64,000 bases of DNA from a bacterium (GCA_003252295.1 QKEV01000017.1:100488-164487), one strand, 5' to 3'. Shown: positions 2,422 through 30,316, counted from the first letter of the stretch. Notes: generated from the letters alone by a model not told the origin. Numbers and translations are program-made.

Positions 2422-2576
2422 ATTTCCATACACAAGATCAAGATACAGCAACAGGGGTATTTGAAATACCAAAAGAACCTCTCTCACAACAACCTCGTGA
2501 GTTTCTTGAAGCAATTGAGAGAGACTCTCAACGCGAAGAGGCACTTGCTGGAGAAGCAACCCGTGAGCTAGATGAC

Positions 2577-11053: not shown

Positions 11054-11170
11054 AGCACTCATTACACTTACCCGTTACGCTTTACAATGAACACCTCTCA
11101 TGAGGTATTTTGTTTTGTGCACATGTACCTACACAGAAAAATATACAGGTGGTATTGTTGTAGTACACAT

Positions 11171-12397
11171 ATGAAGAAAGCATTAGAAACGTACAAGCAA
11201 CTACTTACACAAAAAACGCTCATATACATTTTGCTTCCAGTACTGTACATAGCAAGTTTTCTACTTGTTAACGCAGCAATTGATACGAGTTCTTCTATTA
11301 CTTCGAATGATAGTACTATTCTTGAAAGCAAAGAAGTGTCTAGTACACCCGTTACACTATCTGAACAGTACCCACCTGTCACAGGTGAACGAACAGTTGC
11401 TGTTATTCTTGTTAACTTTCTTGATGACCAAGATGAACCGGGTACACCAGAAAAAACCTTGGAAATCATGAGTGAAGTGTCTGATTACTTCGAGGAAGTT
11501 TCATATGGTGCAGTACATCTATCAACAGATGTCTATGGATGGTGGACTCTTCCATTTGACACATCACGTTGCACAGAACAGGGTTCACACCTTGTTGGTC
11601 TTGATATTAAAAAGGAAGCAATAAGGCGTGGTGTAAACCTATCACCATACAATCATGTGATATTTGTTTTCAACAAGAGACAGGGTTCTTGGTGTAAGGG
11701 TGGATTAGGAACAGTTATGGGAGGGCAGGGTATGGTTTGGCTAACATGGGAGGACACATATGCCGGTGAAAAGACGAGTTTTGACAGCTTATATGGCATC
11801 AGTAGAATCGTCCATGAAATTGGCCATAATTTAGGACTGAAGCATGCAAACAGACTTGATTGCGGTGAGACAACTTTTGGTGACTCCTGCACAACTATCG
11901 GCTACGGGGATTTCTATGATGCCATGGGAACCCTATCGCAATATCGAGCATCACACTTTAATGCTTTCCAAAAAATGAAGCTGGGTTGGATAAGCGATGC
12001 ACAAGACATCGAAAATAGAATACAGACAATCACTGAGGATGGGGAATACTTTATAGATACCTACGAAACACCTGGTGGCATAAAAGCACTTCGCTTTCCA
12101 CGAGGTCCAGGAATAAAAGGTGGCACCGACTACTACTACATAGAGTATCGGCAACCTATTGGTTGGGATACAGAACTGAAAGAGGGAACACACACTGCCA
12201 CTAATGGTGTGCTCGTTCACCTTGGTAATGACACCATAGACAACTCCAGTCGTTTACTCGACATGCAACCAACAAACACAACAGGACATGAACTTTTACA
12301 AAGAAACACCTTTAAAGATACTGAAACAGGGGTAGAGATACAGCTCCTCGACACGAGCACCAAAGGTGCAACTGTTAGGGTGAGGCTCGCTGAGTAG
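11171..12397 (+). CDS. Secreted or membrane-anchored zinc metalloprotease (metzincin-like HExxHxxGxxH)
   Basis: HEIGHNLGLKH motif. N-terminal TM/signal (LIYILLPVLYIASFLLVNAAI). The start was chosen at the internal Met (MKKALETYK...). The ORF track starts at 11087. Confidence 0.5.
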   Translation: MKKALETYKQLLTQKTLIYILLPVLYIASFLLVNAAIDTSSSITSNDSTILESKEVSSTPVTLSEQYPPVTGERTVAVILVNFLDDQDEPGTPEKTLEIMSEVSDYFEEVSYGAVHLSTDVYGWWTLPFDTSRCTEQGSHLVGLDIKKEAIRRGVNLSPYNHVIFVFNKRQGSWCKGGLGTVMGGQGMVWLTWEDTYAGEKTSFDSLYGISRIVHEIGHNLGLKHANRLDCGETTFGDSCTTIGYGDFYDAMGTLSQYRASHFNAFQKMKLGWISDAQDIENRIQTITEDGEYFIDTYETPGGIKALRFPRGPGIKGGTDYYYIEYRQPIGWDTELKEGTHTATNGVLVHLGNDTIDNSSRLLDMQPTNTTGHELLQRNTFKDTETGVEIQLLDTSTKGATVRVRLAE

Positions 12398-12458: not shown

Positions 12459-12878
12459 CTAGTAGAGTGAGGTACCAAAAAAGTCTACTATTGGACCTGC
12501 CCCAACCACCTCACATGAGCAAACTTCATCGTCATCGTCGTCATCGTCGTCATCGTCACTACTACCACCATCCTGACCACAGATAATGAGATGGCATTCT
12601 TTGTAACCCCATGCTACCCCTAACTGCCAAGCGGTAGGGTAAGGTCTGTAGTGTTCATACATCCTGTACATTGCCGGACAGTACATGAAATCTCCTCCTC
12701 TTGGACCTCCAAGAGTGATCAGGTTGCATGGCTCACATTCACAGTAGATTATATTGAGGGCTCTCCCTCCCATAAGTGCAGCTTGTGCCTCACTTGATGG
12801 TGTTGGAACAAGAACACCAGACAAAGCAACTACTGCAATACACATTGAAAATACAGTGTTTTTTAGTTGATTGATCAT
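12459..12878 (-). CDS. Small secreted Cys-rich protein with a poly-Asp (D10) tract
   Basis: Signal peptide (MINQLKNTVFSMCIAVVALSGVLVPTPSSEAQA), 10 Cys, and SSDDDDDDDDDDEV encoded by a (GAC/GAT)n trinucleotide repeat at ~12535-12570. Confidence 0.5.
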   Translation of the reverse strand: MINQLKNTVFSMCIAVVALSGVLVPTPSSEAQAALMGGRALNIIYCECEPCNLITLGGPRGGDFMYCPAMYRMYEHYRPYPTAWQLGVAWGYKECHLIICGQDGGSSDDDDDDDDDDEVCSCEVVGAGPIVDFFGTSLY

Positions 12879-14005
12879 ATTTCTAAAATAAATGACTTTG
12901 CATTGCTAATACCATTCACATTCACCACAGTAATCCACACCTCCTCTTGTGTCGTCACGATTTTTGCATCGAGGTTTGCCCGCACAAGCTTCTTTTCGAA
13001 TGGTTCATAGTCAAACACGAATGTTTTTTCGTCGTTAGACTTCATGTGATTGAATTCTGTCTGACTTGTTATAATGTCATTCTCTGTACTTGTGAAGTTA
13101 GTTCCAGTAATCGTTATCTCGTCTCCTTGCTCTATCATCTCAGGTGTAATACTTGTGATAGTTGGTGCGCCTGGTCCATTCTTATCTCCTATCCATATCA
13201 CTGTATCGTACTCACTCTCAGTATCTTCATCACGAACATTTACTTGATATTTTCCTGGTGTAAGACCTGGAACAGTAATACTTAGTTCAGTACCATTACT
13301 TGAAACAAGTTCACTCTCCATCAACTCACTGTTCCACAAAACATCAATTTTCTTACCTGTTCCAAACCCTTCTCCAGTGAGTGTTACCTTGTCTCCTGGA
13401 AAAGCATAGTTTGATGAAGCGTAGTGAAGGTCAATTTTTCCATCTATATTTCCCGAAGAGCTTATTTCTCCCATATCACCCCCCTCTAAACTGTACTCTT
13501 GCCGTTGCCATTTTGGTGTACTACACACCTCATCACCACAACCACACTTCCATCTGCCATCGATTTTTTGGCAAATATAGGCTAAAACCTTACCTTTTTC
13601 GCCACTTTTGACACCAACAAGATCAGTTGTTGCTGCACCCACTATCCACGGACCAACGGTTTTTTCTCCAGAAAAGGTGATCTTTTGCCATTTTCCATCT
13701 ACCCTTTCGTATCCATACTTGTATATGTATTGTGTCGAGAGACCGTTTCCAATGTAAGCGGTAGCAGACCCTTCACCTTTACATGTCACAAGCATGAGCA
13801 GTTCATTTGTTGTGCTAAAAAGATCAACAGGACTTCCATAATCACTGGAAGCAAGTGTGTTTTTACTAGTAATAGTATGACAAACAGTGTACATGTCCGT
13901 CTCTGATGCGGCTTTCACCTCACCAGCACCCATCAAACAAAGAGGGCAGGCAAGGAGTAGGAACAACACCTTAAAATATTTACTCATGAAAAAATTGTAC
14001 CACAA
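12875..14005 (-). CDS. Secreted protein with IPT/TIG-like Ig-fold repeats
   Basis: Signal peptide (KVLFLLLACPLCLMGAGEVKA). Two segments resemble IPT/TIG domains (DKVTLTGEGFGTGKKIDVLWNSE...YQVNVRD; PTITSITPEMIEQGDEITITGTNFTS). ATGA start/stop overlap with the downstream gene. Confidence 0.45.
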   Translation of the reverse strand: MWYNFFMSKYFKVLFLLLACPLCLMGAGEVKAASETDMYTVCHTITSKNTLASSDYGSPVDLFSTTNELLMLVTCKGEGSATAYIGNGLSTQYIYKYGYERVDGKWQKITFSGEKTVGPWIVGAATTDLVGVKSGEKGKVLAYICQKIDGRWKCGCGDEVCSTPKWQRQEYSLEGGDMGEISSSGNIDGKIDLHYASSNYAFPGDKVTLTGEGFGTGKKIDVLWNSELMESELVSSNGTELSITVPGLTPGKYQVNVRDEDTESEYDTVIWIGDKNGPGAPTITSITPEMIEQGDEITITGTNFTSTENDIITSQTEFNHMKSNDEKTFVFDYEPFEKKLVRANLDAKIVTTQEEVWITVVNVNGISNAKSFILEI

Positions 14006-14125
14006 GTAAACGTAGCTAAACGATTATTCCACACAGTCAGTATTAGGAGAAATGCAAAAAAATAATCCACAGTTTCTATGTAAATTGTCTTATGTGTATG
14101 AATAAGAGAGCGTATACTGATATGT

Positions 14126-15109
14126 ATGAAGAACCCGAAAACGGTGAGTTCTGCAAACCGTCACATGCTCATATTTACTTCGCTGGTAGTGTGTGCGTTT
14201 GTTGGTATGGTTGCTTTCGTGTTCACACGTGATACTACGCAGGTTATACAGAACGACACACTTGCTGTAAACGAGTTGAATGGTTTCGACATGACATATG
14301 AGGAAGATACTGACGGCGACGGACTTGCAAACTGGGAAGAGACACTCTGGGGTACCGACCCAGAGAATGCTGATACTGACGGTGACGGTATTCGAGATAA
14401 GGAGGACGTGTTTGCAAACAGTGAAACTGCTTTTGCTATTGATGATCAATCATCCTCAGGTAACAACAGCGCAAACCTAGTATCACGAAACAGTGATGGA
14501 ACCGAAACACCAGACAATGCCACAGGGATACTTTCAAAGGAAATGTTCAGTGCATACATGCTTACACTCAAGAACGGGGAAACATTCACACAAGAAGATC
14601 AAGACCTTGCCTTTACTCGTGCTCTTGATGAAGCTGCTCCACAGCTGACCCCACCTAGGTACACCATAAATGATGTACATACGGTACCAGCAACTGATGC
14701 AAATAGGGCTCGCTACGTAAAGTCAGTACTAGAAACATTTCAAAACATGATTGATGGTGTGGTAAGTGAAAAAAAATCACTCTATGATATCGGACAGGGA
14801 AACACCGACCAAGGAGTAAGTGATTTGAAGAAAACTGTTGCAAACTACAAACAGTACACACAAACACTAGAAGACATGTCAGTGCCAAATGACGCTATAG
14901 AGACACACCATACCTTGGTGCAGAAACTGCTCACATACGTGTACATAGTAGAAGGTTTGAGTATGCTCAATGAAGATCCTGTACGTGCAGCTACAGCACT
15001 TCAACTGTTCAGCTACACCTACGGTGAATTGAATGCTTCATATGGGTTATTCACGACCTATGTGAAAAGCAATAGCGAGAGCATTATCAATGGTGGTGGC
15101 TTACGTTAA
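14126..15109 (+). CDS. Membrane-anchored extracellular protein with thrombospondin type-3-like Ca-binding repeats
   Basis: N-terminal TM (LIFTSLVVCAFVGMVAFVF). DTDGDGLANWEE...DTDGDGIRDKED DxDxDG repeats. Confidence 0.45.
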   Translation: MKNPKTVSSANRHMLIFTSLVVCAFVGMVAFVFTRDTTQVIQNDTLAVNELNGFDMTYEEDTDGDGLANWEETLWGTDPENADTDGDGIRDKEDVFANSETAFAIDDQSSSGNNSANLVSRNSDGTETPDNATGILSKEMFSAYMLTLKNGETFTQEDQDLAFTRALDEAAPQLTPPRYTINDVHTVPATDANRARYVKSVLETFQNMIDGVVSEKKSLYDIGQGNTDQGVSDLKKTVANYKQYTQTLEDMSVPNDAIETHHTLVQKLLTYVYIVEGLSMLNEDPVRAATALQLFSYTYGELNASYGLFTTYVKSNSESIINGGGLR

Positions 15110-15120
15110 GCACTTAGTTA

Positions 15121-16617
15121 ATGATCATCATGTTTTCAAAACTTAAAAACTCTTTCACAGCCCTCATCATCGTAACTCTCCTTGCGCCAGGTTTTTACTT
15201 TGGTATGCAACCAGCTCCGAAAGCTGAGGCGGACATGGCAGGTATTATTGGTGACATTGTTGGTGCAGGAGTGTCATATGTTATGTGTGAGTATGGTGAC
15301 GAACTCATGGGTGCACTTGGTGATCTCTTGGGTGGTGCTATTGAAGGACTGTTTGGTGATTTCTTAGGTGACTTCGGCAGTATTTTGGGATTTGGTGATG
15401 ATAAGGATGGTGATGGAACAGGTGATGGGGTTGATTACAAAGTAGCTTTTCAAGATGCAGTACCTACAAATGAACAAAACAAATCTGTTGTTTTGAATAC
15501 GAACTCTATTGCACGTGGTACTGAAACACAGGTGTACAAAGAGTGTGTACTTGACCCGGCTGCCTGGGTGGTGAAAGCCATTCTTGTGAACACTATTACA
15601 CAAGACATTCTCGATTGGGTTAATGGTGGCTTCTATGATGGTCCGGTATTTTTGAGAGATCCTATTGAGTTTATGAAAAACCTTGCTGAGTCAATGCTCT
15701 TTAGCTTCTTGGAAGACTCTGGTCTTGCTGATGCACTCTGTACGCCATTTAGAGACTATACAATAGACTTTGTACGTAATACTGCTACACAACCTACCTT
15801 CAGTAAAACCGGCTTCAGTAGCGCGTCGTGTAACTTTGGCGAACTGGGTGGTGAAAGTAACTACATAGCTATGGTGGAGGATGGGGATATTTTAAGTGCA
15901 GGACTCACAGCCGCTGCAGCAATTACCCTTGAAGGTAACAACCCATACAGTGCGGTCTTCAATGTACAAGATGAAGCGTCACAACGTGTTGATCAAATTG
16001 TGAACCAGCAGATGACCCGTGTACAGTACAGTGATGGCTACTTTTCAATGGATTGTGATTACAATGGAACTGTTGATACCTGTACACCAGGTCAGTTGGT
16101 ATCAAAACAGGTCGACGATTGGCTCGGCGGTTCACTCTCAGAACTTGAAAATGCTGACGAAATAGGTGAGATCATTGATGCAGCAATAAGCTACATGGTA
16201 CATTCCATCTTCTCTGACTCCTCAACCGATGGTTTGCTTGAAGGTGGTCGCTTTGATGAGGAATATAACCCTGTTACTGGTGGTGAGATTTCGGACACAG
16301 CTACAGGTGGCACCCCTGACAACACAAACACTACCTTCCTCTGGAAACCATTCTCAAGTGCTACTGGTAAACTCGAGGTGCTTCTACCATCAACATTTGT
16401 TGACACCTGTAAAGTGACCGTCCAAGGTTCTTTGAAGACAGAAGTACTCGACTTTATAGGTAGGACAAATGGAAATAGACCTACTTATCGTGGTGATTTT
16501 GCAGGAAGTCTCTATGGTTCACCAGTAAAAGTTACTGCATCATGTCCTACTAGTGGCGGCGGTAACACTACCACTGTATGGAACGTCCCTAATGCAGCAG
16601 CAACGTTTACGAAATAA
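15121..16617 (+). CDS. Hypothetical secreted or membrane-anchored Gly/Asp-rich protein
   Basis: N-terminal hydrophobic segment, then a GDxxG-rich region (GDLLGGAIEGLFGDFLGDFGSILGFGDDKDGDGTGDG). 498 aa. Confidence 0.45.
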   Translation: MIIMFSKLKNSFTALIIVTLLAPGFYFGMQPAPKAEADMAGIIGDIVGAGVSYVMCEYGDELMGALGDLLGGAIEGLFGDFLGDFGSILGFGDDKDGDGTGDGVDYKVAFQDAVPTNEQNKSVVLNTNSIARGTETQVYKECVLDPAAWVVKAILVNTITQDILDWVNGGFYDGPVFLRDPIEFMKNLAESMLFSFLEDSGLADALCTPFRDYTIDFVRNTATQPTFSKTGFSSASCNFGELGGESNYIAMVEDGDILSAGLTAAAAITLEGNNPYSAVFNVQDEASQRVDQIVNQQMTRVQYSDGYFSMDCDYNGTVDTCTPGQLVSKQVDDWLGGSLSELENADEIGEIIDAAISYMVHSIFSDSSTDGLLEGGRFDEEYNPVTGGEISDTATGGTPDNTNTTFLWKPFSSATGKLEVLLPSTFVDTCKVTVQGSLKTEVLDFIGRTNGNRPTYRGDFAGSLYGSPVKVTASCPTSGGGNTTTVWNVPNAAATFTK

Positions 16618-16640
16618 CAATTTGATCACATTACAAACCT

Positions 16641-18776
16641 ATGCACTACCTTCTAAAATATAAACGCACTATCGCCACCACTCTCTTACTAGCGTTTGTG
16701 GTTCCTGTGCTATCCTTGGGTTTTGGTGTGTCATCTACTGCCCAAGCGGCAACCGCAGTAGATCCTGTAAGTGACGGTATAGTAGTAAATCAAGATAATA
16801 TAAATGCACTTGAAGCTAAAAACGATTTGGATTTTGGTTGCTCTACAAGTTCACTGATCGGATGTCTTGCGTTTATCTCGTACTGGATCTTTCTCAAGCC
16901 AACCTTTGAGCTTGCAACATGGATGAGTATTCTCTTTAACCTATCATTCACCAAGTTTGTTGTTGGTATGGGACACTTGGTAAACAGTATGACTGGTGTA
17001 GATAAAGCGTGGCAGACCCTGCGTGACATAGGAAACATCTTTCTTGTATTTCTCCTTGTATATGTTGGTATAGCAACCATACTTGGTATTTCGGGATATG
17101 GCTATAAGCAGCTCCTCTGGAGAATAGTACTTGCTGCACTTTTGGTAAACTTTAGCATCACCTTTGCAAAGGTTGTTATTGATGTGTCAAATCTTTTGGC
17201 TATTGAAATGTATCAGGTATTTTTATCAAAAACATACGGCGATGCAACAGCTACAGCTTGTTCAAACTATGCAACCTCAGGTGCGGAACTTAGCAATACT
17301 GATAAAAATGATTGTAACGATAAAGGTATAGCTGCAGTTTTTTGGTCACAGTTACAGTTTACAACCATTTTTAATATTAATAATATACCCGCATCAGCCA
17401 GCAAAAGAGACGAACAATGGAAGATGGTTACTGCAGCACTCATGGGTGGTGTCATGTCACTTGTTATGGCCTTTGTCTTTGGTGCTACTGCCTTTTTCCT
17501 TGTAGCTCGTTTTGTTACCCTAATCTTCCTTATTGTGGTATCACCGATTGCGCTCATAGCATGGATCACTAAGGTCTCGGGTAGTGGTAGCAAATGGTGG
17601 CATTCTCTTTTAAATCAAAGCATGTTTGCACCACTCATCCTCCTCATGTGGTACGTTGCCTATCAGGTTCTTGAGAGCATGAAAGGAAAAGGTCCTTCTA
17701 TTGCTAACGGTGGTTTGGCTTCGGGTTCCATGGTGGATATATCAGGCATCAGTCTTTTTGTTACTTTTGTTTTAGGTACTGGTTTTCTCATTGCAGGACT
17801 TGTTGTCGCAAAACAGTTTGGTGCCTATGGTGCCAGTGCTGTTATGAGTACTGGAAAACAATGGTCACGACGAGGTGTAGGTTTGATCACAGGAACCGCT
17901 GGTGGTATTGCGGGTGGCACCATTGCAGGTACAGCACTTTTGGGTCGCCAAACAGTTGGCCGTGCTGCTAATAGGATAAAGGATAATGAGGCACTCAAAG
18001 AAGGTTCAGTAAGTAGCAATTTTGCAAAACGCTGGGCATCAAGAAGTGTTCGCTCTGCAAGTGGTAAACTAGCAGAAAGCAACTTTGATGCACGAGGACT
18101 TGTTACCAACAAGAAGTTGAGTAGTGCTATTGGCAAAGCTGGTGGTAAGGGTGGATACAACAAGTGGGCTGAAAACAAGCAGAAGAAAGAAGAAGAGCTA
18201 CATAAAGATGTAACAAAGTACACTGGTAATGCGGAAGACAGACAAGAACTAAAGAATAAACTCGACGCTGAAAGAGCTAGGAATGAAGAGTCTAGCAGGA
18301 TAGCTGCAAATGATCGTTCGACACACGAGACCGCTCTCAGACAGGCAAAATACGAACATGAGACCGCACGAACCAATGAAGAAATTGCTGCTGCTGAAGC
18401 CAAAGTTAAGACAGTTCAAGGTGACCTTGATGCAGCGAAAAAACTACAAGAGGAACATGAGTCAAAGAGGGCAGCAGAACGAGAAGCAATTCGAATAGAA
18501 CAGGAGAAGATGTACGAAGAGAAAGGTAAGGAGCGCGCGTCGAGAAATATTGACCGTCTAGCAAGTGAATCAACTCTCTATAACCTACCAACACGAAAGT
18601 GGAAAAAAGATGTTGCTAGTAAGTTGCGAAAAAACCAAGGTAAGTCTGAGAATGAACAAACCGCAGAAAAGATCAAGAAGGTGTTAGATGCAATGGGTGA
18701 GGATAAACCAAAAACTGACACGGATGCAGCACCTGCTGATAGTGGAGCAGACACTTCAGGTCAAAGCAGCAACTAA
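16641..18776 (+). CDS. Polytopic membrane protein, VirB6/TrbL-like, with a long charged coiled-coil C-terminal tail
   Basis: Signal peptide, at least 6 predicted TM helices with loops, and a Gly-rich TM (GLITGTAGGIAGGTIAGTALLG). The C-terminus has ~250 aa of K/E/R-rich coiled coil. It sits at the head of the VirB3/VirB4 cluster. Confidence 0.4.
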   Translation: MHYLLKYKRTIATTLLLAFVVPVLSLGFGVSSTAQAATAVDPVSDGIVVNQDNINALEAKNDLDFGCSTSSLIGCLAFISYWIFLKPTFELATWMSILFNLSFTKFVVGMGHLVNSMTGVDKAWQTLRDIGNIFLVFLLVYVGIATILGISGYGYKQLLWRIVLAALLVNFSITFAKVVIDVSNLLAIEMYQVFLSKTYGDATATACSNYATSGAELSNTDKNDCNDKGIAAVFWSQLQFTTIFNINNIPASASKRDEQWKMVTAALMGGVMSLVMAFVFGATAFFLVARFVTLIFLIVVSPIALIAWITKVSGSGSKWWHSLLNQSMFAPLILLMWYVAYQVLESMKGKGPSIANGGLASGSMVDISGISLFVTFVLGTGFLIAGLVVAKQFGAYGASAVMSTGKQWSRRGVGLITGTAGGIAGGTIAGTALLGRQTVGRAANRIKDNEALKEGSVSSNFAKRWASRSVRSASGKLAESNFDARGLVTNKKLSSAIGKAGGKGGYNKWAENKQKKEEELHKDVTKYTGNAEDRQELKNKLDAERARNEESSRIAANDRSTHETALRQAKYEHETARTNEEIAAAEAKVKTVQGDLDAAKKLQEEHESKRAAEREAIRIEQEKMYEEKGKERASRNIDRLASESTLYNLPTRKWKKDVASKLRKNQGKSENEQTAEKIKKVLDAMGEDKPKTDTDAAPADSGADTSGQSSN

Positions 18777-18778
18777 GT

Positions 18779-19918
18779 ATGGAAAAAGAACTCGATCTTG
18801 AAACGTACATTGCACAGCAATGGAAAGCTCTTCCAAACCTCACCCAACAGGTCATCAAAGAGGGTACCTATCGTGAGGTTACACAGCAGGCCCTCAATAA
18901 AGCAGGCGCGGATAATACTGAGGAATACCTTGAGCAACTCTCTTTTGAGGCACTCATTGTGATACTCAACCTACAAACAGTGGATGATTTCAGAGAAAAC
19001 GTAAAACTTATTTCATCACTCACTGACACGCAAGTAGAAACCATTGTGCGTGAACTGAATGCTCAACTATTTTCTACACTCAACTCTGTGAATGAATCAT
19101 TTGAGGGTACGATACTTGAGCATATCTTCTTTGTGAAAAAGATTAATGACCTGTTTCTCAAACTACCTGCGGAAACGCAAGAGATAATACAGAAGCTCTC
19201 ATTTGACTGCATTGGCACCCTTGCACATAGACATCTGTTTAACAAAAAACAGATCAATGCGCTTCGCACCATGATCGCTGAGGTGATGGTTGGACTTATT
19301 AATACCACCGATTTTGTAAAACATGCACAAAATGACCTTGCTTTGTCCTACACCGATGCTGTTGCTGCTGCAAACGAGGTTGAAAAGGAGGTTTTTACAC
19401 CAGTACGTGAAAGCTTACTCAATGCGCTCACTCCAAAAAATGTAAAAGAGAAGGTGGTGAGTAAGCAGGAACAAAGTTATTCAGATGAGTGGAAAAAGAA
19501 AGTGGTAGAGGAACTCTACAAAGAAAAAGATGTGGTTGCAACAGAAAAGAAACTTCGCGATTACCTTATTGGCCTACATGATGACACCGATGATGGGGGT
19601 GAATGTATCAACAAAGAAGTAGATGCCTACATTAAGAAAAGGTGGCAAACACTACCTCCACTAGCTAAACGTGTACTTATTGAGAACACTTATAAAGAGA
19701 TCCTTCAGTTTGCACTCAATAAAGCTGACGCTGAGGATACCGAACCATACCTGCATGACTTACAGCTCGATATACTACTTGTGGTACTCGGTCTACTCCC
19801 AAAGAAGAGTTTCATTGAAAAAATGGATAGCAATACAGCTATAAAAAATAAAAAAGCTTTCACCAATGAACTCGATGCTCAAATTTTCTCTTCTATCATA
19901 CAGGATGAGACCGAGTAA
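18779..19918 (+). CDS. Hypothetical cytoplasmic protein with an internal ~70-aa duplication
   Basis: ETYIAQQWKALPNLTQQVIKEGTYREVTQQALNKAGADNTEEYLEQLSFEALIVILNL recurs as DAYIKKRWQTLPPLAKRVLIENTYKEILQFALNKADAEDTEPYLHDLQLDILLVVLGL. Confidence 0.45.
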   Translation: MEKELDLETYIAQQWKALPNLTQQVIKEGTYREVTQQALNKAGADNTEEYLEQLSFEALIVILNLQTVDDFRENVKLISSLTDTQVETIVRELNAQLFSTLNSVNESFEGTILEHIFFVKKINDLFLKLPAETQEIIQKLSFDCIGTLAHRHLFNKKQINALRTMIAEVMVGLINTTDFVKHAQNDLALSYTDAVAAANEVEKEVFTPVRESLLNALTPKNVKEKVVSKQEQSYSDEWKKKVVEELYKEKDVVATEKKLRDYLIGLHDDTDDGGECINKEVDAYIKKRWQTLPPLAKRVLIENTYKEILQFALNKADAEDTEPYLHDLQLDILLVVLGLLPKKSFIEKMDSNTAIKNKKAFTNELDAQIFSSIIQDETE

Positions 19919-20004
19919 CACTTTGTATTGTATAAAAAACTCAGTACTGCAGGGCAGTCTGTAGTAAACTATACCTACGGCAGGGTAGAGTACCCAATTA
20001 AAGT

Positions 20005-20439
20005 ATGCGGTTTGCTGTTCCACAATTCATAGATGTTGAGGATAAGATTTTTGGACCTCTTACCTTGAAGCAGGCTATTTATCTTGCAGGAAGTATTGGT
20101 TTTACTGTAGCTGTATATCTTCGTTTTAACCTTTTTATTGCTGCTGTACTTGGCACACCTGTTCTACTGCTCGCCTTCCTTCTTGCTTTTATAAAAGTAC
20201 ATGGCAGACCATTTGTAAACGTACTCACCTCAGCAGTATTCTATGCGGCAAAAACAAAACTCTACTTGTGGAAACAAACACCAAAAAAGAAAGTTATTGT
20301 AAAAAGTGAACCAGTACAAGAAAAAACAACAACAGGACAACCTGCTACTTCAGGACTCACGCAATCTAACTTGAAAAAACTTGCATGGACGCTTGATACA
20401 GGTAACCCATTTGATAAACATAAAAAAACAAAACATTAG
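20005..20439 (+). CDS. Small two-TM membrane protein, PrgI/VirB3-like
   Basis: 144 aa. Two hydrophobic helices (AIYLAGSIGFTVAVYL; IAAVLGTPVLLLAFLLAFI). It sits immediately upstream of the VirB4 region, as VirB3/PrgI does in T4SS operons. Confidence 0.4.
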   Translation: MRFAVPQFIDVEDKIFGPLTLKQAIYLAGSIGFTVAVYLRFNLFIAAVLGTPVLLLAFLLAFIKVHGRPFVNVLTSAVFYAAKTKLYLWKQTPKKKVIVKSEPVQEKTTTGQPATSGLTQSNLKKLAWTLDTGNPFDKHKKTKH

Positions 20440-20446
20440 GAACTAT

Positions 20447-21109
20447 ATGCCTCAAGGAACAAACAAAGGAAAACCAAGTCAAGATTTTGTACCTATCGAA
20501 CAGGTGCGTGATGGTATTTTAGTACTGAAAGATGGTTCTATTCGTGCTGTTCTCATGGCCTCATCAATAAATATTGTTTTAAAAAGTGCAGATGAACAAG
20601 CAGCTATTCTTGGGCAATTTGAAAGTTTTTTAAATTCTCTTGATTTCTCGTTACAGATATTTATCCAATCACGTGAACTTGATATACGACCATACCTTAC
20701 TCTGCTTGAAAATCAGTTAGCTATACAGCAATCAGAACTTATGAAGATACAGGTACGAGAATATATTGAGTTTATCAAAAACTTCATAGAAGGTTCCAGT
20801 ATTATGACAAAGGGTTTCTATGTAGTGATTCCTTATTCAGCTCCTTCACTTGAAGTAAAAGCAACAACTGGTGGTATTTCGGCACTCTTCACCTCAAAAG
20901 AGGCGACAAACGAGCTTTCTCTTGAACTCTTTGAAGAGTACCGCTCACAGGTTGAGCAGAGAATCTCTGTGGTTACTCACGGACTTGCAAGGACTGGTGT
21001 ACATGTTGCCCAGCTTGGCACTGAAGAGGTGATAGAATTATTTTATAGAATGTTTAATATTGGTGAACTTGATAAACCAATGTCACTCACTAATATAACA
21101 ACTAGCTAA
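20447..21109 (+). CDS. Hypothetical protein; resembles a VirB4 N-terminal domain (possible split or paralogous VirB4 N-domain)
   Basis: PIEQVRDGILVLKDGSIRAVLMASSINIVLKSADEQAAILGQFESFLNSL matches the pattern of VirB4/TraC N-termini. The start was chosen at the internal Met with AGGA 9 nt upstream. The ORF track starts at 20381. Confidence 0.4.
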   Translation: MPQGTNKGKPSQDFVPIEQVRDGILVLKDGSIRAVLMASSINIVLKSADEQAAILGQFESFLNSLDFSLQIFIQSRELDIRPYLTLLENQLAIQQSELMKIQVREYIEFIKNFIEGSSIMTKGFYVVIPYSAPSLEVKATTGGISALFTSKEATNELSLELFEEYRSQVEQRISVVTHGLARTGVHVAQLGTEEVIELFYRMFNIGELDKPMSLTNITTS

Positions 21110-21115
21110 TGTAGT

Positions 21116-22942
21116 ATGGGATTGTTTTCATTTCACAAAAAAGACGAACTAGGTGAGGATTTCGATACTGGATCTGTTGTTCCTGAAGACCTATACGATA
21201 TCAGCAACCTTGAACTTAAAGATGTTCTTGCTCCATCAGCATTGCAGATCACTCCTCGTGAACTCAATCTTGGTGAACAGGTTGCACGAATGTTCTTTAT
21301 CATCTCGTTTCCACGGTACCTCACAGAAAACTGGTTTTCTCCTATCATCAATCTTGAAAAGGTTTTTGATGTTTCTATCTTCATACACCCTATTGATACT
21401 GCTCCAGTACTTAAGAAATTCCAAAAAAAGGTTGCTGAAGTGCAAAGCCAGATACATGAACGAGAGTCAAAAGGTATGGTACGTGACCCGAAACTTGATG
21501 CTGCTTACGAGAACCTTGAAGAACTGCGTGACTCATTACAGCAGGCAGAACAGAGACTTTTTGATGTTGGTGTATACATATCAGTATATGCAAAAACAAA
21601 AGAAGAGCTCGATAAAGCAGAAGATCATGTAAAAAGCATGCTCGAGTCACAACTCATTTACCTCAAACCTGCACTCTTTCAACAAGACCAAGGATATCGA
21701 AGTATCCTTCCTCTCTGTACCGACGAACTCTTTGTTCACAGCAAACTAAACAGTTCTCCACTCTCTTCGATCTTTCCTTTTATATCATTCGACCTCACTG
21801 CAGAAAACGGTATATTGTACGGTATAAACATGCACAACAGCTCGCTTGTGCTCTTCGACCGATACTCAATGGAAAACTACAACTCGGTACTCTTTGCAAA
21901 ATCTGGTTCTGGTAAAAGTTACTGTACAAAACTGGAGATACTCCGTTCACTCATGTTTGATACTGAGGTTATTGTTATTGATCCTGAACGTGAGTACGAG
22001 TATATGGCAAGTGCCACAGGTGGTCGGTACTTCAATATTTCACTTTCTTCAGAGCATCACATTAATCCTTTTGATCTTCCTCCAGTTCATGAAGACGAAA
22101 GTCCTGCAGATATACTACGTCAGAACATTATTACTTTGGTAGGACTCTTCCGAATCATCCTTGGAGGACTCACACCGGAAGAGGATTCACTTATTGATAG
22201 GGCTATTACTGAAACCTATGCGCTCAAAGACATAACCGGTCATAGTGATTTTACCAACCACACACCACCACTCCTTTCTGACTTTGAACTCGTACTGAGT
22301 GGTATGGAAGGAAGTGAGTCACTACTCTTACGTCTTGCCAAGTACACACGTGGTACATGGGCAGGGTTCATCAACAAACCAACAAACGTTGATATTAACA
22401 AAAAGTTTGTTGTGTTTTCAGTGCGAGACATGGAAGAAGACCTCAAACCTGCTGCTATGTATATAGTCACCAACTACATATGGACTGCTGTACGTCGTGA
22501 ACTCAAAAAACGACTTTTGGTGGTAGATGAGGCGTGGTTCATGATGAAAACAGATGATACAGCGGGCTTTCTCTATAGTGTTGCAAAACGTGGACGTAAG
22601 TACTTCCTTGGTCTCGCAACCATCACCCAAGACGTTGATGACTTCCTCAAATCACCGTATGGAGTACCTATTCTACAAAACTCATCTATACAGATACTCC
22701 TAAAACAATCACCAACTGCAATGGATAGGGTACAGGAAACATTCCATCTCACTGATGAGGAGAAGTATCTCCTCCTTGAGTCACAAGTAGGGGAAGGTAT
22801 CTTCTTTGCAGGTAGTAAACATGTTGCAATCAAAGTAATCGCATCATATACAGAAGACCAGATTATTACCTCTGACCCATCACAACTTTTAGCCATCAAA
22901 AAAGAACAAGAGAACTTGGGGGGTGGTAGTGCTACAATGTAA
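21116..22942 (+). CDS. VirB4/TrbE/PrgJ-family type IV secretion ATPase
   Basis: Walker A (LFAKSGSGKSYCTKLEI), Walker B (LLVVDEAWFMM), and a conserved C-terminal region (GRKYFLGLATITQDVDDF). 608 aa. Confidence 0.8.
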   Translation: MGLFSFHKKDELGEDFDTGSVVPEDLYDISNLELKDVLAPSALQITPRELNLGEQVARMFFIISFPRYLTENWFSPIINLEKVFDVSIFIHPIDTAPVLKKFQKKVAEVQSQIHERESKGMVRDPKLDAAYENLEELRDSLQQAEQRLFDVGVYISVYAKTKEELDKAEDHVKSMLESQLIYLKPALFQQDQGYRSILPLCTDELFVHSKLNSSPLSSIFPFISFDLTAENGILYGINMHNSSLVLFDRYSMENYNSVLFAKSGSGKSYCTKLEILRSLMFDTEVIVIDPEREYEYMASATGGRYFNISLSSEHHINPFDLPPVHEDESPADILRQNIITLVGLFRIILGGLTPEEDSLIDRAITETYALKDITGHSDFTNHTPPLLSDFELVLSGMEGSESLLLRLAKYTRGTWAGFINKPTNVDINKKFVVFSVRDMEEDLKPAAMYIVTNYIWTAVRRELKKRLLVVDEAWFMMKTDDTAGFLYSVAKRGRKYFLGLATITQDVDDFLKSPYGVPILQNSSIQILLKQSPTAMDRVQETFHLTDEEKYLLLESQVGEGIFFAGSKHVAIKVIASYTEDQIITSDPSQLLAIKKEQENLGGGSATM

Positions 22943-22944
22943 CC

Positions 22945-23565
22945 ATGCCAAGAGAGCAAGGAAAAAAGTATAGGGTATCAAAAAAAGAAGGGCGTTTGAT
23001 GATTTTTGTTGGTGTACTGTTTGACCTTACACCTATACTCCTTGTGGTTTTAGCTGTTGTTGTGATTGTTATGCTTGGAGGTGACATAATTGGCGGCGCT
23101 CAACATTTACAGCAAGCCCAGGATACGAGCGGTTTTTGGAAAAGCACTTGGAATCCTTTCAGTGGTTTTTACAGAGCGTACCACAATATAGTTGGTGACG
23201 CTAAAATCGTTGGTGGTGTTGTTGGCGGTGGACTTGTTGGTATATTTTTGGGTCCTGTTATCTACACACTTGGTTCTTGGGTTAGCACTTTCTTTGCATA
23301 TATATTTTTTACCATTTGGTTTTTATTCCGAGGCGTCTTTATTTGGTCGTTCACTTCGCCAAGTAGATTGGCAATAACGACAACCACTTTAGTTATTGAG
23401 AACATTCCTGTTGTTGACCTGTTACCAGGAACCACATTCATGGTTTGGCGCCATATCAAGAAATCAAGGACAGAAGATGACAAAAAACACAATGAAAATA
23501 TTGCTAGTTTGAATGCCGTAGCAGGCAGAAGTATCCCTCGTTACATGAAGGCACAAACCGTATAG
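22945..23565 (+). CDS. Polytopic membrane protein (hypothetical), translationally coupled to VirB4
   Basis: At least 4 hydrophobic helices. The start is 3 nt after the VirB4 stop. Confidence 0.4.
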   Translation: MPREQGKKYRVSKKEGRLMIFVGVLFDLTPILLVVLAVVVIVMLGGDIIGGAQHLQQAQDTSGFWKSTWNPFSGFYRAYHNIVGDAKIVGGVVGGGLVGIFLGPVIYTLGSWVSTFFAYIFFTIWFLFRGVFIWSFTSPSRLAITTTTLVIENIPVVDLLPGTTFMVWRHIKKSRTEDDKKHNENIASLNAVAGRSIPRYMKAQTV

Positions 23566-23617
23566 GTTATCCTCAACTCAGAAAAACAGAGCTAACCATA
23601 TACGGTATACTTACAGT

Positions 23618-24679
23618 ATGTATATGACATTATCTAAAAAAACATTTGTTTCCGCTCTTGTTTTTTTTACATCAATGCTTGTTGTTTTTTTTGTGTTTCA
23701 ACAAACATCATTCGCGCAAAGCGTTGAGAAAGGTTCTCTTGTTTTTTCTCCTGAGTATCCAAGTCCTGGTGAAAATGTAACAGTAAAACTTGATGCATAT
23801 AGTGTAGATTTTGATACAGCACTGGTAACATGGAAAGTAAATGGTGAAGTTGTTCAGCAGTCTTATTCAGAAAAAACATATATTTTTAAAGCAGGTCCTG
23901 CTGGTACAAAATACACAGTAAGTGTATCTGTTAAAGATGGGGAAGGGAGAACGGTATTTAAGGAAGCCAGTGTTGTGGTCAGTGATATTAACATTGTCTG
24001 GGAGGGAAGGACATACACACCACCGTTCTACAAAGGACGTGCGTTATACTCACCAGGTGCAGAAATTGCTATACAAGTACTACCCACAATAACTAAAAGT
24101 AATGGAACCCTCTACGCCACTGACGAGCTTTCATATGCATGGTTTGTAAATGACTCAAACGTTGCTTCAGAGAGAGGAAAAGGTAAACATTCTGTGGTTC
24201 TTTTAGGCACTAATCCACAACAACCTCTCAAGATATACCTAGAGATCAAAGACCCAGCAGGGAAGGTACGTGCATCAAGAAAATTTGTCATCCCTACTTC
24301 ACAACCTACACTCATGCTCTATGAAAGCAGTCCTTATGTTGGTGTTCGTTATGATGTTGCCATTGGAACAATATTAAGTGTATACAATACAGGCGACGAA
24401 GCCTCAAATATGTCTATTGTTGCAGAACCGTATTTTATGAGTGCAGGAAGGAGAGACGATGCAACACTTGAGTATGATTGGCGTATTGGAGACTCGAAGA
24501 AGGATTCTGCAGGAACACTTACTCTTGGGTCTGAAGGGTCAGGAACTGGTTCTACAAACCTCAGTGTAACTATTGATAGTAGAGACTACTGGTTGCAAAG
24601 TGTACGTAAAGATATAACTGTTCAATATGGAAGTATAAGTAATTGGGCACTCCAAAGTAGTAACACAGAAGCATTATGA
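23618..24679 (+). CDS. Secreted hypothetical protein
   Basis: Signal peptide (FVSALVFFTSMLVVFFVFQQTSFAQS). 353 aa. Confidence 0.45.
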   Translation: MYMTLSKKTFVSALVFFTSMLVVFFVFQQTSFAQSVEKGSLVFSPEYPSPGENVTVKLDAYSVDFDTALVTWKVNGEVVQQSYSEKTYIFKAGPAGTKYTVSVSVKDGEGRTVFKEASVVVSDINIVWEGRTYTPPFYKGRALYSPGAEIAIQVLPTITKSNGTLYATDELSYAWFVNDSNVASERGKGKHSVVLLGTNPQQPLKIYLEIKDPAGKVRASRKFVIPTSQPTLMLYESSPYVGVRYDVAIGTILSVYNTGDEASNMSIVAEPYFMSAGRRDDATLEYDWRIGDSKKDSAGTLTLGSEGSGTGSTNLSVTIDSRDYWLQSVRKDITVQYGSISNWALQSSNTEAL

Positions 24680-25056
24680 TTCAACAAATAGTAAAAAAGG
24701 GTGGTTTGATTGGTATGACACTACTCACACCATTAGTAAGTTTTGCTAATGGTAGTGGTAATGACTATCACACACTCACAGAAGGTGGTATACCGCTTGT
24801 TGATACAGCAACCATGGATATGAGTGGTCTTTTAAATGCACTGTTTGCTATTTCTGTCGTTGTTGCTGCAATTCTTGCAGTTATTATGCTGGCGATAGGT
24901 GGTTTTCGTTACATGACAAGTGAATCTGTATTCAATATGGGTAATGCGCGCGAACAAATCTCGAACGCTATCATTGGCTTACTCATTGTCCTCGTTTCTG
25001 TCCTTATTCTCTACACTATTAATCCTGATATAGTTCAACTCAAATTGTTTAATTAG
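24676..25056 (+). CDS. Small pilin-like membrane protein (VirB2/TrbC-like T4SS pilin candidate)
   Basis: 126 aa. Signal-like N-terminus, two hydrophobic helices (LLNALFAISVVVAAILAVIMLAIGG; AIIGLLIVLVSVLILYTI) separated by a short polar loop. ATGA overlap with the upstream gene. Confidence 0.35.
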   Translation: MIQQIVKKGGLIGMTLLTPLVSFANGSGNDYHTLTEGGIPLVDTATMDMSGLLNALFAISVVVAAILAVIMLAIGGFRYMTSESVFNMGNAREQISNAIIGLLIVLVSVLILYTINPDIVQLKLFN

Positions 25057-26337
25057 TTGCGTATGTTTGATTTTCTAAAAGGTAATAAAACAGTAACAGG
25101 GGCACTCATACTTGGTCTAATTTTTGTTGCTATTATTTTTCTCATAATGCTTACTGCAGGGGGAGACACTACAAACACAGTAATCAATGAAGATGATCCT
25201 ATTTTTGCTAACACAGATGAAGAACGTACTTTTGATCCTGGGGTACAAAACATCTTTGGCCCGGTTGACCCAGAAAAGTGGGTTGAACAGGAAGGTTCAC
25301 AAGAAGCAGCTCCTTTTCTTCGTGCTATTACTGAAGATCCTGTTGTAAGTGCTGTTGCTTTTACAAAAACAAATGGTGTATCGAATCTGCCATATGTTCG
25401 TTTTACTACACTCAATGATGGAAACATACACGAGACACCACTTCAGGTTGTTGGTACCATTGAGAAGATCTCCGATCTTAAAACACTTCGTGTTGGTGAT
25501 GTTGTATGGAGTAGAAATGGAAACTTTTCTCTCACTCGTTACCTAGATAATACAAATACAGAAATTGCTACACAGCTTTTTGATTTACGTAAAGGAACCT
25601 CTACTGAAGATGTGAGTAGAGCTATTAGTGATACTATTATCTCTACCACTTTTTCACCAGACGAAAAAGAATTCTTTTCACTAGTGAAAACGAGTGAAGG
25701 TGTTACAGGTTACCTTGAGTCAGTAGAGAAGGGGACAAGAACTGCTGTATGGTCATCCATTTTTAAGAACGTAACAGTATTATGGGATGCAGAGAATAAG
25801 ATTGTTATATACACCAACCCGTCTTCAGTAACTGAAGGTGTTATATGGGTACTCAACCCATATACAAAGAAGGAAACTGTTGTGCTTACTGGGAAGCGCG
25901 CACTTGCTGCAAAAATGTCCCCAGATGGAAAGAAATTACTCTACTCTATGCAAGAGGAACAAACTGACGCTTTCTCACTTCGCACATTTGATATGGAAAC
26001 TGGTGAAGTATTCACACTACCGCTTATTGGTTTTGTAGATAAGTGTACTTGGGCACAAAGTGATTCTAATAATATTTACTGTGCTATACCAAAAGAAGAG
26101 ATTGAGGGTGAGTTCATGGAAAAATGGTACATGGGTGCTGAATACACAAATGACACCCTTTGGCGAATAGATGCAGAAAGCGGTACAACAAAAGAACTAC
26201 TCGATCCAGAAGAAGAAACGGGAGAAACATTTGATATTACAAATCTTTCTGTAGACCCTGGAGAAAACTATCTTGTATTCACCTCAAGAGTGAATCGTGC
26301 CTTGTGGTCATTCAAACTTTCAGGAACAGCTCAGTAA
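25057..26337 (+). CDS. Membrane-anchored beta-propeller protein with PD40/TolB-like repeats
   Basis: N-terminal TM (GALILGLIFVAIIFLIMLTAGG). An SPDGKKLLYS-type PD40 repeat and WD-like blades. Confidence 0.5.
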   Translation: MRMFDFLKGNKTVTGALILGLIFVAIIFLIMLTAGGDTTNTVINEDDPIFANTDEERTFDPGVQNIFGPVDPEKWVEQEGSQEAAPFLRAITEDPVVSAVAFTKTNGVSNLPYVRFTTLNDGNIHETPLQVVGTIEKISDLKTLRVGDVVWSRNGNFSLTRYLDNTNTEIATQLFDLRKGTSTEDVSRAISDTIISTTFSPDEKEFFSLVKTSEGVTGYLESVEKGTRTAVWSSIFKNVTVLWDAENKIVIYTNPSSVTEGVIWVLNPYTKKETVVLTGKRALAAKMSPDGKKLLYSMQEEQTDAFSLRTFDMETGEVFTLPLIGFVDKCTWAQSDSNNIYCAIPKEEIEGEFMEKWYMGAEYTNDTLWRIDAESGTTKELLDPEEETGETFDITNLSVDPGENYLVFTSRVNRALWSFKLSGTAQ

Positions 26338-26351
26338 AGTGCATCTACACA

Positions 26352-26386
26352 AACAACCACCTGTATACAGGTGGTTGTTGTTTTAT
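26352..26386. terminator. Bidirectional Rho-independent terminator
   Basis: aacaaccacctg-tata-caggtggttgtt is a perfect 12-bp stem followed by gttttatttt. It lies between convergent genes. Confidence 0.55.
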
Positions 26387-27637: not shown

Positions 27638-27967
27638 TTACCTTTTGCTATGTATTTTACGTAAGAGAACTTCTAGTTCTTCTTGTAAATCCTGGTATGA
27701 CAAACTAGTACATGTAGGTTTTGTAAATACTGCAATATGTATATTTTCTATAAGTGTAAGATTCTTACCAAGGATTGAAAATATCCTTCTGCGAAACTTA
27801 TTCCTCAAAACAGCTTTGTTTGCTATTTTCTTGCTGACCACAACACCTAGTTTAGTTTCCTTGGCAGGCAGATATGTCAGTGATAGTGAAGTACTATGAA
27901 TACGTTTACCCTGTTGTAATAGGGAAGTGAAGTCTCTTCTGCTAAGTTTTTGTTTTTTCTTTACCAT
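27638..27967 (-). CDS. rnpA: RNase P protein component
   Basis: RRDFTSL...KLGVVVSKKIANKAVLRNKFRRR basic RnpA signature. Located directly downstream of rpmH. Confidence 0.85.
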   Translation of the reverse strand: MVKKKQKLSRRDFTSLLQQGKRIHSTSLSLTYLPAKETKLGVVVSKKIANKAVLRNKFRRRIFSILGKNLTLIENIHIAVFTKPTCTSLSYQDLQEELEVLLRKIHSKR

Positions 27968-28021: not shown

Positions 28022-28159
28022 TTACACTGCTAGTTTCTTTCGTCCCTTAGCTCGCCTACGCTTCACTACTCGTTTTCCTCCTGGTGTGCGCATACGTACG
28101 AGAAAACCATGTGTTGTCTTCCTCTTTTTCTTTTTTGGTTGGTATGTTCGTTTTGGCAT
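28022..28159 (-). CDS. rpmH: 50S ribosomal protein L34
   Basis: Manual translation of the minus strand gives [45 protein letters not shown] (45 aa), a classic L34. It is not in the ORF track because it is shorter than 60 aa. Confidence 0.85.
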
Positions 28160-30250: not shown

Positions 30251-30316
30251 TTTTCCACAAACTATCCACAAAAAACCTCATAAAGTCTTTCTTTTGTGAA
30301 CTGGTATTGTGGAAAA
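30251..30316. promoter_or_regulatory. DnaA-box cluster upstream of dnaA
   Basis: ttttccaca (30251-30259) and ctatccaca (30262-30270) are each 8/9 to TTATCCACA. tgtggaaaa (30308-30316) is the reverse complement of ttttccaca. Confidence 0.5.

Follow-up and report, generated by a model that had tools for sequence, protein, structure and literature searches.

The Patescibacteria type IV secretion system (T4SS) has been called an established newcomer in a 2025 review (PMC12857230). In Southlakia, a Saccharibacterium, Wang et al. (2023) found a T4SS cluster that is essential and has pilins but no coupling protein or relaxase, and transposon sequencing showed the T4SS to be required for epibiotic growth (PMC10633639). 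Quinonero-Coronel et al. (2025) recovered a monophyletic Patescibacteria VirB4 clade across 2,407 assemblies, nested in MPF_FATA; TrsD, PrgI/VirB3, VirB6 and VirB2-like pilins were found near virB4, relaxases were almost lacking, and in the Paceibacteria the T4SS locus lies near dnaA, dnaN, ksgA, rnpA and rpmH (PMC12102498). Here we describe a T4SS gene cluster in a stretch of bacterial DNA of 64,000 nt (64 kb; GCA_003252295.1, QKEV01000017.1:100488-164487), hereafter the window. All coordinates are window positions, and the open reading frames (ORFs) of the block between rsmA and jag are named g1 to g13.

On sequence-level features this cluster is an instance of the already published T4SS of the ultra-small Patescibacteria, in its Paceibacteria form, and the system is not new. 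We say so because the window shows every defining feature of that system that can be read at this level: a VirB4 of the MPF_FATA type, an adjacent TrsD, PrgI and VirB6, a pilin, neither a relaxase nor a type IV coupling protein (T4CP) in the 64 kb, and a position near dnaA. The features that would mark a conjugative element, namely a relaxase, VirD4/TcpA, an integrase, an att or tRNA target and a variable location, were not found in the window. A first-pass annotation of the same DNA had considered the composition of the system unusual; it is in fact that of the standard published Patescibacteria T4SS (PMC12102498, PMC10633639). The system derives from the monoderm MPF_FATA type.

The operon and its core components

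Genes g3 to g13 are 11 plus-strand genes spanning 14126–26337 (12.2 kb). We read them as a single operon, since neighbouring genes are only -4 to 86 nt apart, the interval 14126–26337 contains no plus-strand terminator-like site, and a strong intrinsic-terminator-like hairpin (26352–26379, +; a stem of 12 bp, of which 6 are GC pairs, and then a T-run) is located 15 nt past the g13 stop codon. Gene calls on an identical contig place alternative starts at 23624 for g11 and 25063 for g13. The operon specifies a VirB6-like protein, PrgI/VirB3, a VirB4 in two pieces and a VirB2-type pilin, together with six lineage-specific envelope or cytoplasmic proteins, four of which are exported or anchored beyond the membrane. 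Genes g1 and g2 form a divergent pair coding for secreted proteins (12459–14005, -), with a mutual overlap of 4 nt. The first-pass annotation had reported an uninterrupted run of 13 ORFs between rsmA and jag. All 13 are present at the coordinates it gave, although g1 and g2 lie on the minus strand and the gene for an M11-like metalloprotease (11087–12397) intervenes between rsmA and g1.

A genome scan with VirB4 yielded 80 related loci, of which 46 have full 10-kb flanks and 40 share all core genes. Unless another denominator is given, occurrences below refer to the 46 full-flank loci, and identities are to the window protein.

The predicted motor of the system is g9 (21116–22942, +), a 608-amino acid VirB4 ATPase of the CD1110/MPF_FATA type (NF045971, 3.8e-111, 372.6 bits against a cut-off of 325), which also matches PF19044 (1.7e-24). 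Its Walker A motif is AKSGSGKS and its Walker B motif is LLVVDE, at residue 467. The match to NF045971 covers only profile positions 182–734, the N-domain being absent from g9. That domain is an ORF of its own, the TrsD/TraC-like g8 (20447–21109, +), which matches NF041427 TrsD (8e-7), carries a precomputed PF26593 TraC-like assignment, and aligns to positions 100–253 of the Mycoplasma VirB4 model NF045975 (3e-9) and to positions 2–125 of NF045971 (CD1110). It is also colinear with residues 22–197 of the full-length, 797-amino acid VirB4 of plasmid pCDC3875 (E 9e-8). Since g9 starts at profile position 182 and g8 supplies the N-domain, VirB4 is encoded in two pieces, and this split was found in 46/46 full-flank loci. 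Both genes occur in all of these loci, g8 at 57% identity. The best 120 database matches of g9 are 74–91% identical to it, and the minority of these with a named source are from candidate phyla radiation (CPR) taxa (Paceibacterota, Kaiserbacteria, Patescibacteria group); homologues in metagenome-assembled genomes of Paceibacterota/Parcubacteria show 75–91% identity; the best plasmid relatives, from Firmicutes and Actinobacteria, show 28–35% identity. By this identity ranking, rather than by a tree, g9 is classified as an MPF_FATA-lineage VirB4 with its nearest relatives in the Patescibacteria. Immediately upstream of g8, g7 (20005–20439, +) codes for a PrgI/VirB3-like protein with two transmembrane (TM) segments (PF12666, 1.6e-8, score 35.4 bits, cut-off 27; TM 31–63), which occurs in 46/46 loci with 44% median identity. 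It is the probable membrane anchor for VirB4.

The pilin gene, g12 (24676–25056, +), is located 1.7 kb 3' of virB4. Its 126-amino acid product is a VirB2-type T4SS pilin (PF18895, 1.3e-7, 32 bits against a gathering score of 26.6) that carries a signal peptide as well as two TM helices (56–74 and 97–115), and it matches NF045849, the Mbov_0395 pilin-like family of Mycoplasma integrated conjugative elements (5.5e-6). Orthologues occur in 42 of the 46 loci, with a median identity of 37%. The operon pilins range from 116 to 474 amino acids, some fusing two or more pilin domains or bearing long N-terminal extensions (L034, 13861–15285; L045, 13517–16363; and other loci), and two pilin ORFs are present in 5/61 loci; the window has the minimal, 126-amino acid form.

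The VirB6-like component is g5 (16641–18776, +), found in 46/46 loci. Residues 1–470 are polytopic, with six to seven hydrophobic segments, and are followed by a charged C-terminal tail of 241 amino acids (50 K/R and 46 D/E), for which reason it is called an extended VirB6. TrbL/VirB6 was matched by 4/42 g5 orthologues (best 1.1e-6), and PF04610 and PF19590 are among the precomputed assignments of g5 homologues in a large protein collection. Residues 1–470 were modelled with AlphaFold2 (pLDDT 74.9, pTM 0.69), and when this model was compared with 350,542 PDB chains using Foldseek, ranks 1–4 were taken by four TrwI/VirB6 chains of the R388 T4SS (probability 0.80–0.92). An hhalign comparison of the g5 family with a single CD1112 VirB6 was not significant, and a g5 orthologue profile searched against PDB sequences returned coiled-coil noise only. 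We accept g5 as VirB6 on the strength of the orthologue Pfam matches and the predicted fold.

The first-pass annotation had proposed, from the sequence by eye, a bona fide VirB4 ATPase at 21116–22942, a VirB4-N-domain-like protein, a two-TM PrgI/VirB3-like protein, a 126-residue pilin-like protein and a VirB6/TrbL-like protein with a charged tail. These assignments stand: g9 scores above the curated NF045971 cut-off and has both Walker motifs, g8 has its TrsD and VirB4 N-domain matches, g7 and g12 exceed their Pfam gathering scores, and g5 is borne out by its orthologues and fold, with a tail of 241 amino acids.

Comparison with related loci and systems

The 80 loci are all from Parcubacteria/Paceibacteria-type metagenome-assembled genomes, the nearest being GW2011_GWD2_42_14 (88% VirB4 identity). 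The gene order uvrD-rsmA-operon-jag-yidC-rnpA-rpmH-dnaA-dnaN is kept in the genomes of at least 46 Parcubacteria/Paceibacteria species, with the same order and orientation in 46/46 full-flank loci; homologues of the flanking rsmA, yidC and dnaA were detected in 42, 46 and 45 of these, respectively. Two remoter contigs (g4 identity 23–25%) carry ComM, an M23/LysM peptidase, UvrD, RsmA, the operon, Jag, YidC and RnpA, again in the same order. A Saccharibacteria origin of the window was considered and rejected, as the informatively named neighbours are Parcubacteria lineages. Many records named 'uncultured Candidatus Saccharibacteria' among the 80 loci stem from bulk third-party annotation (TPA) assemblies and have the Parcubacteria gene order. 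On these sequence comparisons the host is a Parcubacteria/Paceibacteria-type bacterium and not a member of the Saccharibacteria.

Median identities over the 40 loci were 74% for VirB4, 57% for TrsD, 56% for DnaA, 50% for UvrD, 45% for RsmA and YidC, 44% for PrgI, 37% for the pilin and 25–28% for g3, g4, g5, g11 and g13; VirB4 was the most conserved of 15 genes in 39/40 loci. Despite the bias in how the loci were chosen, the sequences present a clear contrast between a constrained motor and fast-diverging exported parts.

With respect to mobility, a Pfam scan of the scanned ORFs of at least 180 amino acids in the window revealed no relaxase, VirD4/TcpA, integrase or VirB11. The large ORFs of the window that lack any match are not P-loop proteins and have no Walker motifs typical of a T4CP. 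The only tRNA genes of the window, at 51.8 and 63.0 kb, do not adjoin the block, no att-like repeats flank it, and its GC content is unremarkable. Since the gene order is fixed in at least 46 species, and the surroundings of the block contain no relaxase, VirD4, integrase, tRNA or att site, the cluster is on present sequence evidence a vertically inherited chromosomal machine and not a mobile element. The first-pass annotation, too, had seen no relaxase, VirD4 or integrase, which is confirmed here for the scanned ORFs, and there is no adjacent tRNA or att site; its reading of the block as a chromosomal T4SS or pilus-like apparatus, and not as a conventional conjugative element, is supported by the VirB4, PrgI and pilin matches together with the lack of adjacent mobility genes.

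When set beside the Patescibacteria T4SS of the 2025 survey, the locus has the same VirB4, separate TrsD, PrgI/VirB3, VirB6 and pilin, as well as the ksgA(rsmA)/rnpA/rpmH/dnaA/dnaN context, and nothing essential differs (PMC12102498). It provides a clean and complete Paceibacteria reference operon and no new kind of system; its interest stems from the fact that this system is near-universal in a vast, mostly uncultivated bacterial radiation and, in the only species in which this was tested, indispensable for epibiotic growth.

The cluster of Southlakia epibionticum (SEML1_0006-0019) has a common core with the window operon, consisting of VirB6, PrgI, a TrsD-like protein, VirB4 and VirB2-type pilins, and it likewise contains no relaxase or T4CP. 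It, too, is situated near the chromosome start, beside recF. The Southlakia cluster contains a triple lysozyme-like protein, a protein of NTF2-like (VirB8-like) type, a pair of very large VirB6-like/T4SS proteins and a six-pilin array, whereas the window operon contains a single pilin, neither a lysozyme nor an NTF2-like match, and the g3, g4, g11 and g13 set instead. A comparison with Saccharibacteria had been put forward; the composition of the Saccharibacteria cluster differs from that of this operon.

Among conjugative MPF_FATA systems of Gram-positive bacteria, a group that also includes the pCF10 Prg system, we compared the operon with Clostridium botulinum plasmid pCDC3875 (CD1110/CD1112/CD1115). 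The order VirB6, PrgI, VirB4 is the same, and the VirB4 proteins are 31% identical over 88% of their length. On the plasmid, VirB4 is full-length (797 amino acids) and is accompanied by VirD4 (CD1115), a MOBP relaxase and an SLT transglycosylase, with no pilin; the window, by contrast, has a split VirB4 and a pilin, and is without VirD4, SLT transglycosylase or relaxase.

Proposed function and alternative explanations

We consider it very probable, from gene content and synteny, that this is a relaxase-free, chromosomal and pilus-forming T4SS which serves contact-dependent host interaction and transport, and not conjugation. In such a machine, PrgI would dock a VirB4 hexamer to the membrane and the TrsD domain, encoded separately, would complete it; the hexamer would pull pilin out of the membrane and polymerise it on a VirB6 platform. 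The product would be a VirB2-type filament or conduit across the monoderm cell wall. Wall passage and host binding would fall to the fast-evolving exported proteins, namely g3, g4 (whose relatives have swappable Ig or lectin C-termini), the Ig-like g11 and the propeller g13. The role of the machine would be contact-dependent interaction with a host cell, which could be attachment combined with protein export or with the uptake of host molecules. In model T4SSs VirD4 is needed for substrate transfer only, and its deletion results in hyperpiliation (PMC13463995). As VirD4 serves substrate transfer only and its loss leaves T4SSs piliating, a VirB2-type filament or conduit may be expected here.

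Several points weigh against this reading. The operon yielded no VirB1-type hydrolase, no VirB8-like protein and no VirB11. No pilus has been reported as seen in any Patescibacterium in the literature found, the review speaking of the 'potential to elaborate conjugative pili' (PMC12857230). VirD4 or a relaxase could lie elsewhere in the genome, the search having covered the 64-kb window, which is part of a contig of at least 174 kb. The g5 protein of the window itself matched no Pfam or NCBIfam family, and the Foldseek E-values of its model are weak (~0.1), with TM-scores of 0.2–0.34. Finally, the related loci were picked by VirB4 similarity, which inflates the rank of VirB4 and biases the conservation comparison.

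An M23 peptidase with LysM domains is encoded 5' of uvrD, in the window (6933–7886, -) as well as in two distant relatives (L085, 2614–3525; L086, 552–1577). M23/LysM proteins have been counted among the VirB1-like candidates (PMC12102498). This peptidase may supply the cell-wall hydrolase that the system is missing, but between it and the operon stand two housekeeping genes.

The alternative that survives best, though we judge it improbable, is that of a machine importing DNA or nutrients, i.e. a T4SS working in reverse or an uptake conduit resembling the archaeal Ced/Ted importers or Helicobacter pylori ComB, which would feed a host-dependent cell unable to make nucleotides. The parts list is indeed Ced-like, since the Ced/Ted importers have a similar minimal set comprising a VirB4-like ATPase, a polytopic VirB6-like protein and small VirB2-like pilins, again with no T4CP or relaxase, and this likeness is one of functional analogy. 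Uptake of host molecules has also been speculated on in the review (PMC12857230), and two enzymes of nucleoside salvage are encoded in the window (IU_nuc_hydro, 48758–49675, -; HD 5'-deoxynucleotidase, 61772–62368, -). There is even a weak match of g9 to CedB (NF041017, 7.8e-9); at 34.7 bits, however, it falls far below the cut-off of 700, so that g9 is not a CedB-type ATPase, whereas the CD1110 conjugative family is matched with 372.6 bits. PrgI and TrsD are bacterial MPF_FATA features, and the direction of transport is not indicated by the sequence. Moreover, deletion of comEC in Southlakia abolishes competence while viability is kept (PMC12857230), from which it follows that the essential role is something other than DNA uptake in itself.

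A HAD phosphatase is encoded at 49665–50330 (-); with the inosine-uridine nucleoside hydrolase and the HD protein it makes up a set of nucleoside-salvage functions, and these are consistent with a host-dependent lifestyle.

The chances are smaller again that the VirB4/VirB6/VirB3/VirB2 proteins build only an adhesive filament, a pilus for host attachment without substrate transport. VirD4-less T4SSs default to pilus production (PMC13463995) and no coupling protein was found here; in addition, lectin or Ig C-termini vary among members of the g4 family, and the exported parts evolve fast. On the other hand, a PilB-like T2SSE ATPase with an MshEN domain (39076–40755, -; 3.1e-107) is encoded within 13 kb of the operon, and the genome therefore has type IV pilus machinery as well. 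Type IV pili have been implicated in host adhesion in the Saccharibacteria (PMC10633639), and a second organelle for adhesion, with its VirB4 kept at 74% identity, would be superfluous.

An ordinary integrated conjugative element or its decaying remnant, to which a VirB4 of the CD1110 conjugative family and the pCDC3875-like order VirB6, PrgI, VirB4 might point, is largely refuted and highly improbable, given that scans of the window revealed neither a relaxase, T4CP or integrase nor any tRNA target, att repeats or compositional anomaly, that at least 46 species have the block at one and the same chromosomal position, that the ORFs are all intact and VirB4 is strongly constrained (74% identity), and that the closest plasmid relatives are at most 35% identical.

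Lineage-specific proteins and neighbouring genes

Genes without family matches were left unannotated in the 2025 survey (grey in its Fig. 6; PMC12102498). By our comparisons, five unannotated genes of the window operon, g3, g4, g6, g11 and g13, represent accessory families that are syntenic across the clade, which goes beyond the published accounts that we found; structural models of the apparatus must accommodate them. Several of the lineage-specific proteins had been described in the first-pass annotation, which listed a Cys-rich poly-Asp protein, an IPT/TIG-like protein, a TSP3-repeat protein, a duplicated-domain cytoplasmic protein and a TolB-like beta-propeller; these descriptions agree with our results for g1, g2, g3, g6 and g13, respectively.

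The g4 protein (15121–16617, +) deserves further attention. It is a secreted protein with a signal-peptide-like N-terminus, a conserved helical, Cys-containing core (approximately residues 130–375) and a variable C-terminus, and its gene, detectable in 34/46 loci, lies directly 5' of that for VirB6. An exhaustive hidden Markov model (HMM) search returned 5,588 cluster representatives at E<=1e-3 and 1,999 at E<=1e-30. The family has no Pfam model of its own, and no Pfam match was obtained for the window protein or for the majority of its relatives. Among 85 diverse representatives, DUF4141 (PF13605) was the commonest family (15/85, best 3.8e-8), and the C-terminal modules included Ig-like (7) and F5/8-type-C lectin (5) domains; closer orthologues matched DUF4141 in 2/54 cases. 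An AlphaFold2 model from a 10-sequence alignment was unusable (pLDDT 41.5), the orthologue profile found nothing informative among PDB sequences, and a set of 72,556 plasmids searched by tblastn with the g4 core gave no match even at E 10. In virB operons, virB5 is located directly upstream of virB6, and the place of g4 5' of VirB6 fits a VirB5 reading.

We take the place of the DUF4141 gene to be the TraI position in the CTnDOT gene order. In the Bacteroides conjugative transposons (B. thetaiotaomicron) this gene is next to traJ, between traJ and traG (PMC10434189), and TraI of CTnDOT has been reported to be homologous to VirB5 (Guglielmini et al. 2014, PMC4027160). No VirB5, TraI or adhesin was reported with virB4 in the 2025 Patescibacteria survey (PMC12102498). 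Because of the DUF4141 matches in the family, the reported kinship of TraI to VirB5 and the lack of any VirB5 reported near virB4, we tentatively suggest, while thinking the opposite likelier, that the Patescibacteria T4SS may have its missing VirB5-type minor pilin or tip adhesin in the g4 family, which would be a remote homologue of the Bacteroidetes TraI (DUF4141). The system would then be a chimera, in which a complete diderm-style VirB2/VirB5/VirB6 pilus and stalk module is mounted on a Gram-positive-type PrgI/TrsD/VirB4 motor, and the swappable Ig and lectin C-termini of g4 would be determinants of host range. In the MPF_B operon of Pontibacter Paks1 (L083), the HMMs for g4 and the pilin matched no Tra ORF (g4 being compared with TraI and the pilin with TraE). 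Homologues of the ORF in the TraI position are all annotated as 'hypothetical', and the Pontibacter comparison says nothing either way. The DUF4141 link goes beyond the published accounts found and is a lead, not proof; g4 is a testable candidate for the pilus-tip and host-recognition subunit.

The first gene of the operon, g3 (14126–15109, +), codes for a membrane protein with one N-terminal TM segment (15–33), Ca-binding repeats of the DxDxDG (TSP3) kind and an unassigned C-terminal domain. TSP3_bac was matched at 1.5e-5, just at the curated cut-off, and the orthologue profile matched only the Ca-binding repeats in PDB. It was detectable by BLAST in 25/46 loci, always directly 5' of g4. Between VirB6 and VirB3, g6 (18779–19918, +) specifies a cytoplasmic protein composed of repeats of a helical domain of approximately 100 amino acids (residues 1–110 against 280–373, E 3.6e-18), with no TM segment and no Pfam or NCBIfam match. 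The ORFs between g5 and g7 across the loci form one BLAST-linked component of 63 nodes which includes g6, and by this measure g6 is a fast-evolving but position-conserved component.

Towards the 3' end, g11 (23618–24679, +) codes for a secreted or anchored protein with an N-terminal hydrophobic segment and putative Ig-like beta-sandwich domains, present in 46/46 loci at 28% identity. Its orthologues gave weak Ig-type matches (BiPBP_C in 6/42 and Ig_3 in 3/42), and their profile produced one weak match only (E 0.031) among PDB sequences. The last gene, g13 (25057–26337, +; probable start ATG 25063), specifies an N-terminally anchored (TM 16–34), TolB-like beta-propeller, whose orthologue profile matches the TolB propeller in PDB (1.5e-5) and which has weak PD40, S9_N and DPPIV_N matches; it too is found in 46/46 loci, with 26% identity. 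The product of g10 (22945–23565, +) is a small membrane protein with approximately three predicted TM segments and no family match. The ORFs between g9 and g11 form one BLAST-linked component of 37 nodes, g10 included, with up to two ORFs per locus, and in 16/67 loci the g9-g11 gap is at most 81 nt, too short for a g10-like gene; g10 is an optional accessory gene.

Of the divergent pair, g1 (12459–12878, -) codes for a small secreted Cys-rich protein with 9 Cys, a run of 10 Asp and an N-terminal hydrophobic segment. It has no Pfam or NCBIfam match and is poorly conserved, being BLAST-detectable in 2/46 full loci. The product of g2 (12875–14005, -) is a secreted IPT/TIG-domain surface protein (PF01833 TIG, 1.5e-12); this gene is semi-conserved, occurring in 10/46 loci on the minus strand and in the same position. 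Upstream of the pair, between rsmA and g1, is the gene for the M11 (gametolysin)-like zinc metalloprotease (11087–12397, +; PF05548, 1.1e-6). It is missing in 80/80 related loci and is therefore a window-specific addition to this neighbourhood of secreted proteins.

A second, unlinked T4SS_pilin paralogue (37349–37696, +; PF18895, 4.8e-10) stands alone between yebC (36725–37258, -) and ruvB (37703–38719, -), 11 kb from the operon. It is the sole other ORF of the window matched by the pilin HMM (7.5e-13). No homologue of it was found in the 10-kb flanks of the 80 related loci, flanks which would not reach this position.

On the other side of the operon are rnpA (27638–27967, -), rpmH (28022–28159, -), dnaA (30338–31696, +; Bac_DnaA, 1.9e-64) and dnaN (31941–33041), which we regard as context and not as components. 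dnaA begins approximately 4 kb past the operon end and marks the region of the replication origin. DnaA-box-like 9-mers (1 mismatch to TTATCCACA) form small clusters at 30251–30316, just 5' of dnaA, and at 31720–31821, in the dnaA-dnaN gap; window-wide there are 26 such sites against 20.7 expected, which is not above chance. The cumulative GC skew has its trough at approximately 12–38 kb of the window. Inserted between rpmH and dnaA are genes for a 457-amino acid SPFH/Band-7 protein (28670–30043, -) and a 138-amino acid membrane protein (28257–28673, -), neither of which had a homologue in any of the 80 related loci. Since this pair is absent from those loci, and L001 and L003 carry different ORF pairs at the same site, the rpmH-dnaA intergenic site beside oriC appears to be a variable insertion point.

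At the far 5' side of the window, a 736-amino acid ORF (2577–4787, +) has a Pro/Gln/Val-rich N-terminal half, one TM segment, a C-terminal domain and no Pfam match. It was considered as a hidden VirD4 and rejected, being a Pro/Gln-rich, single-TM protein without a P-loop. The ORF overlaps a region of strong composition skew, with a GC skew of -0.20 and an AT skew of +0.32 in 2001–4000.

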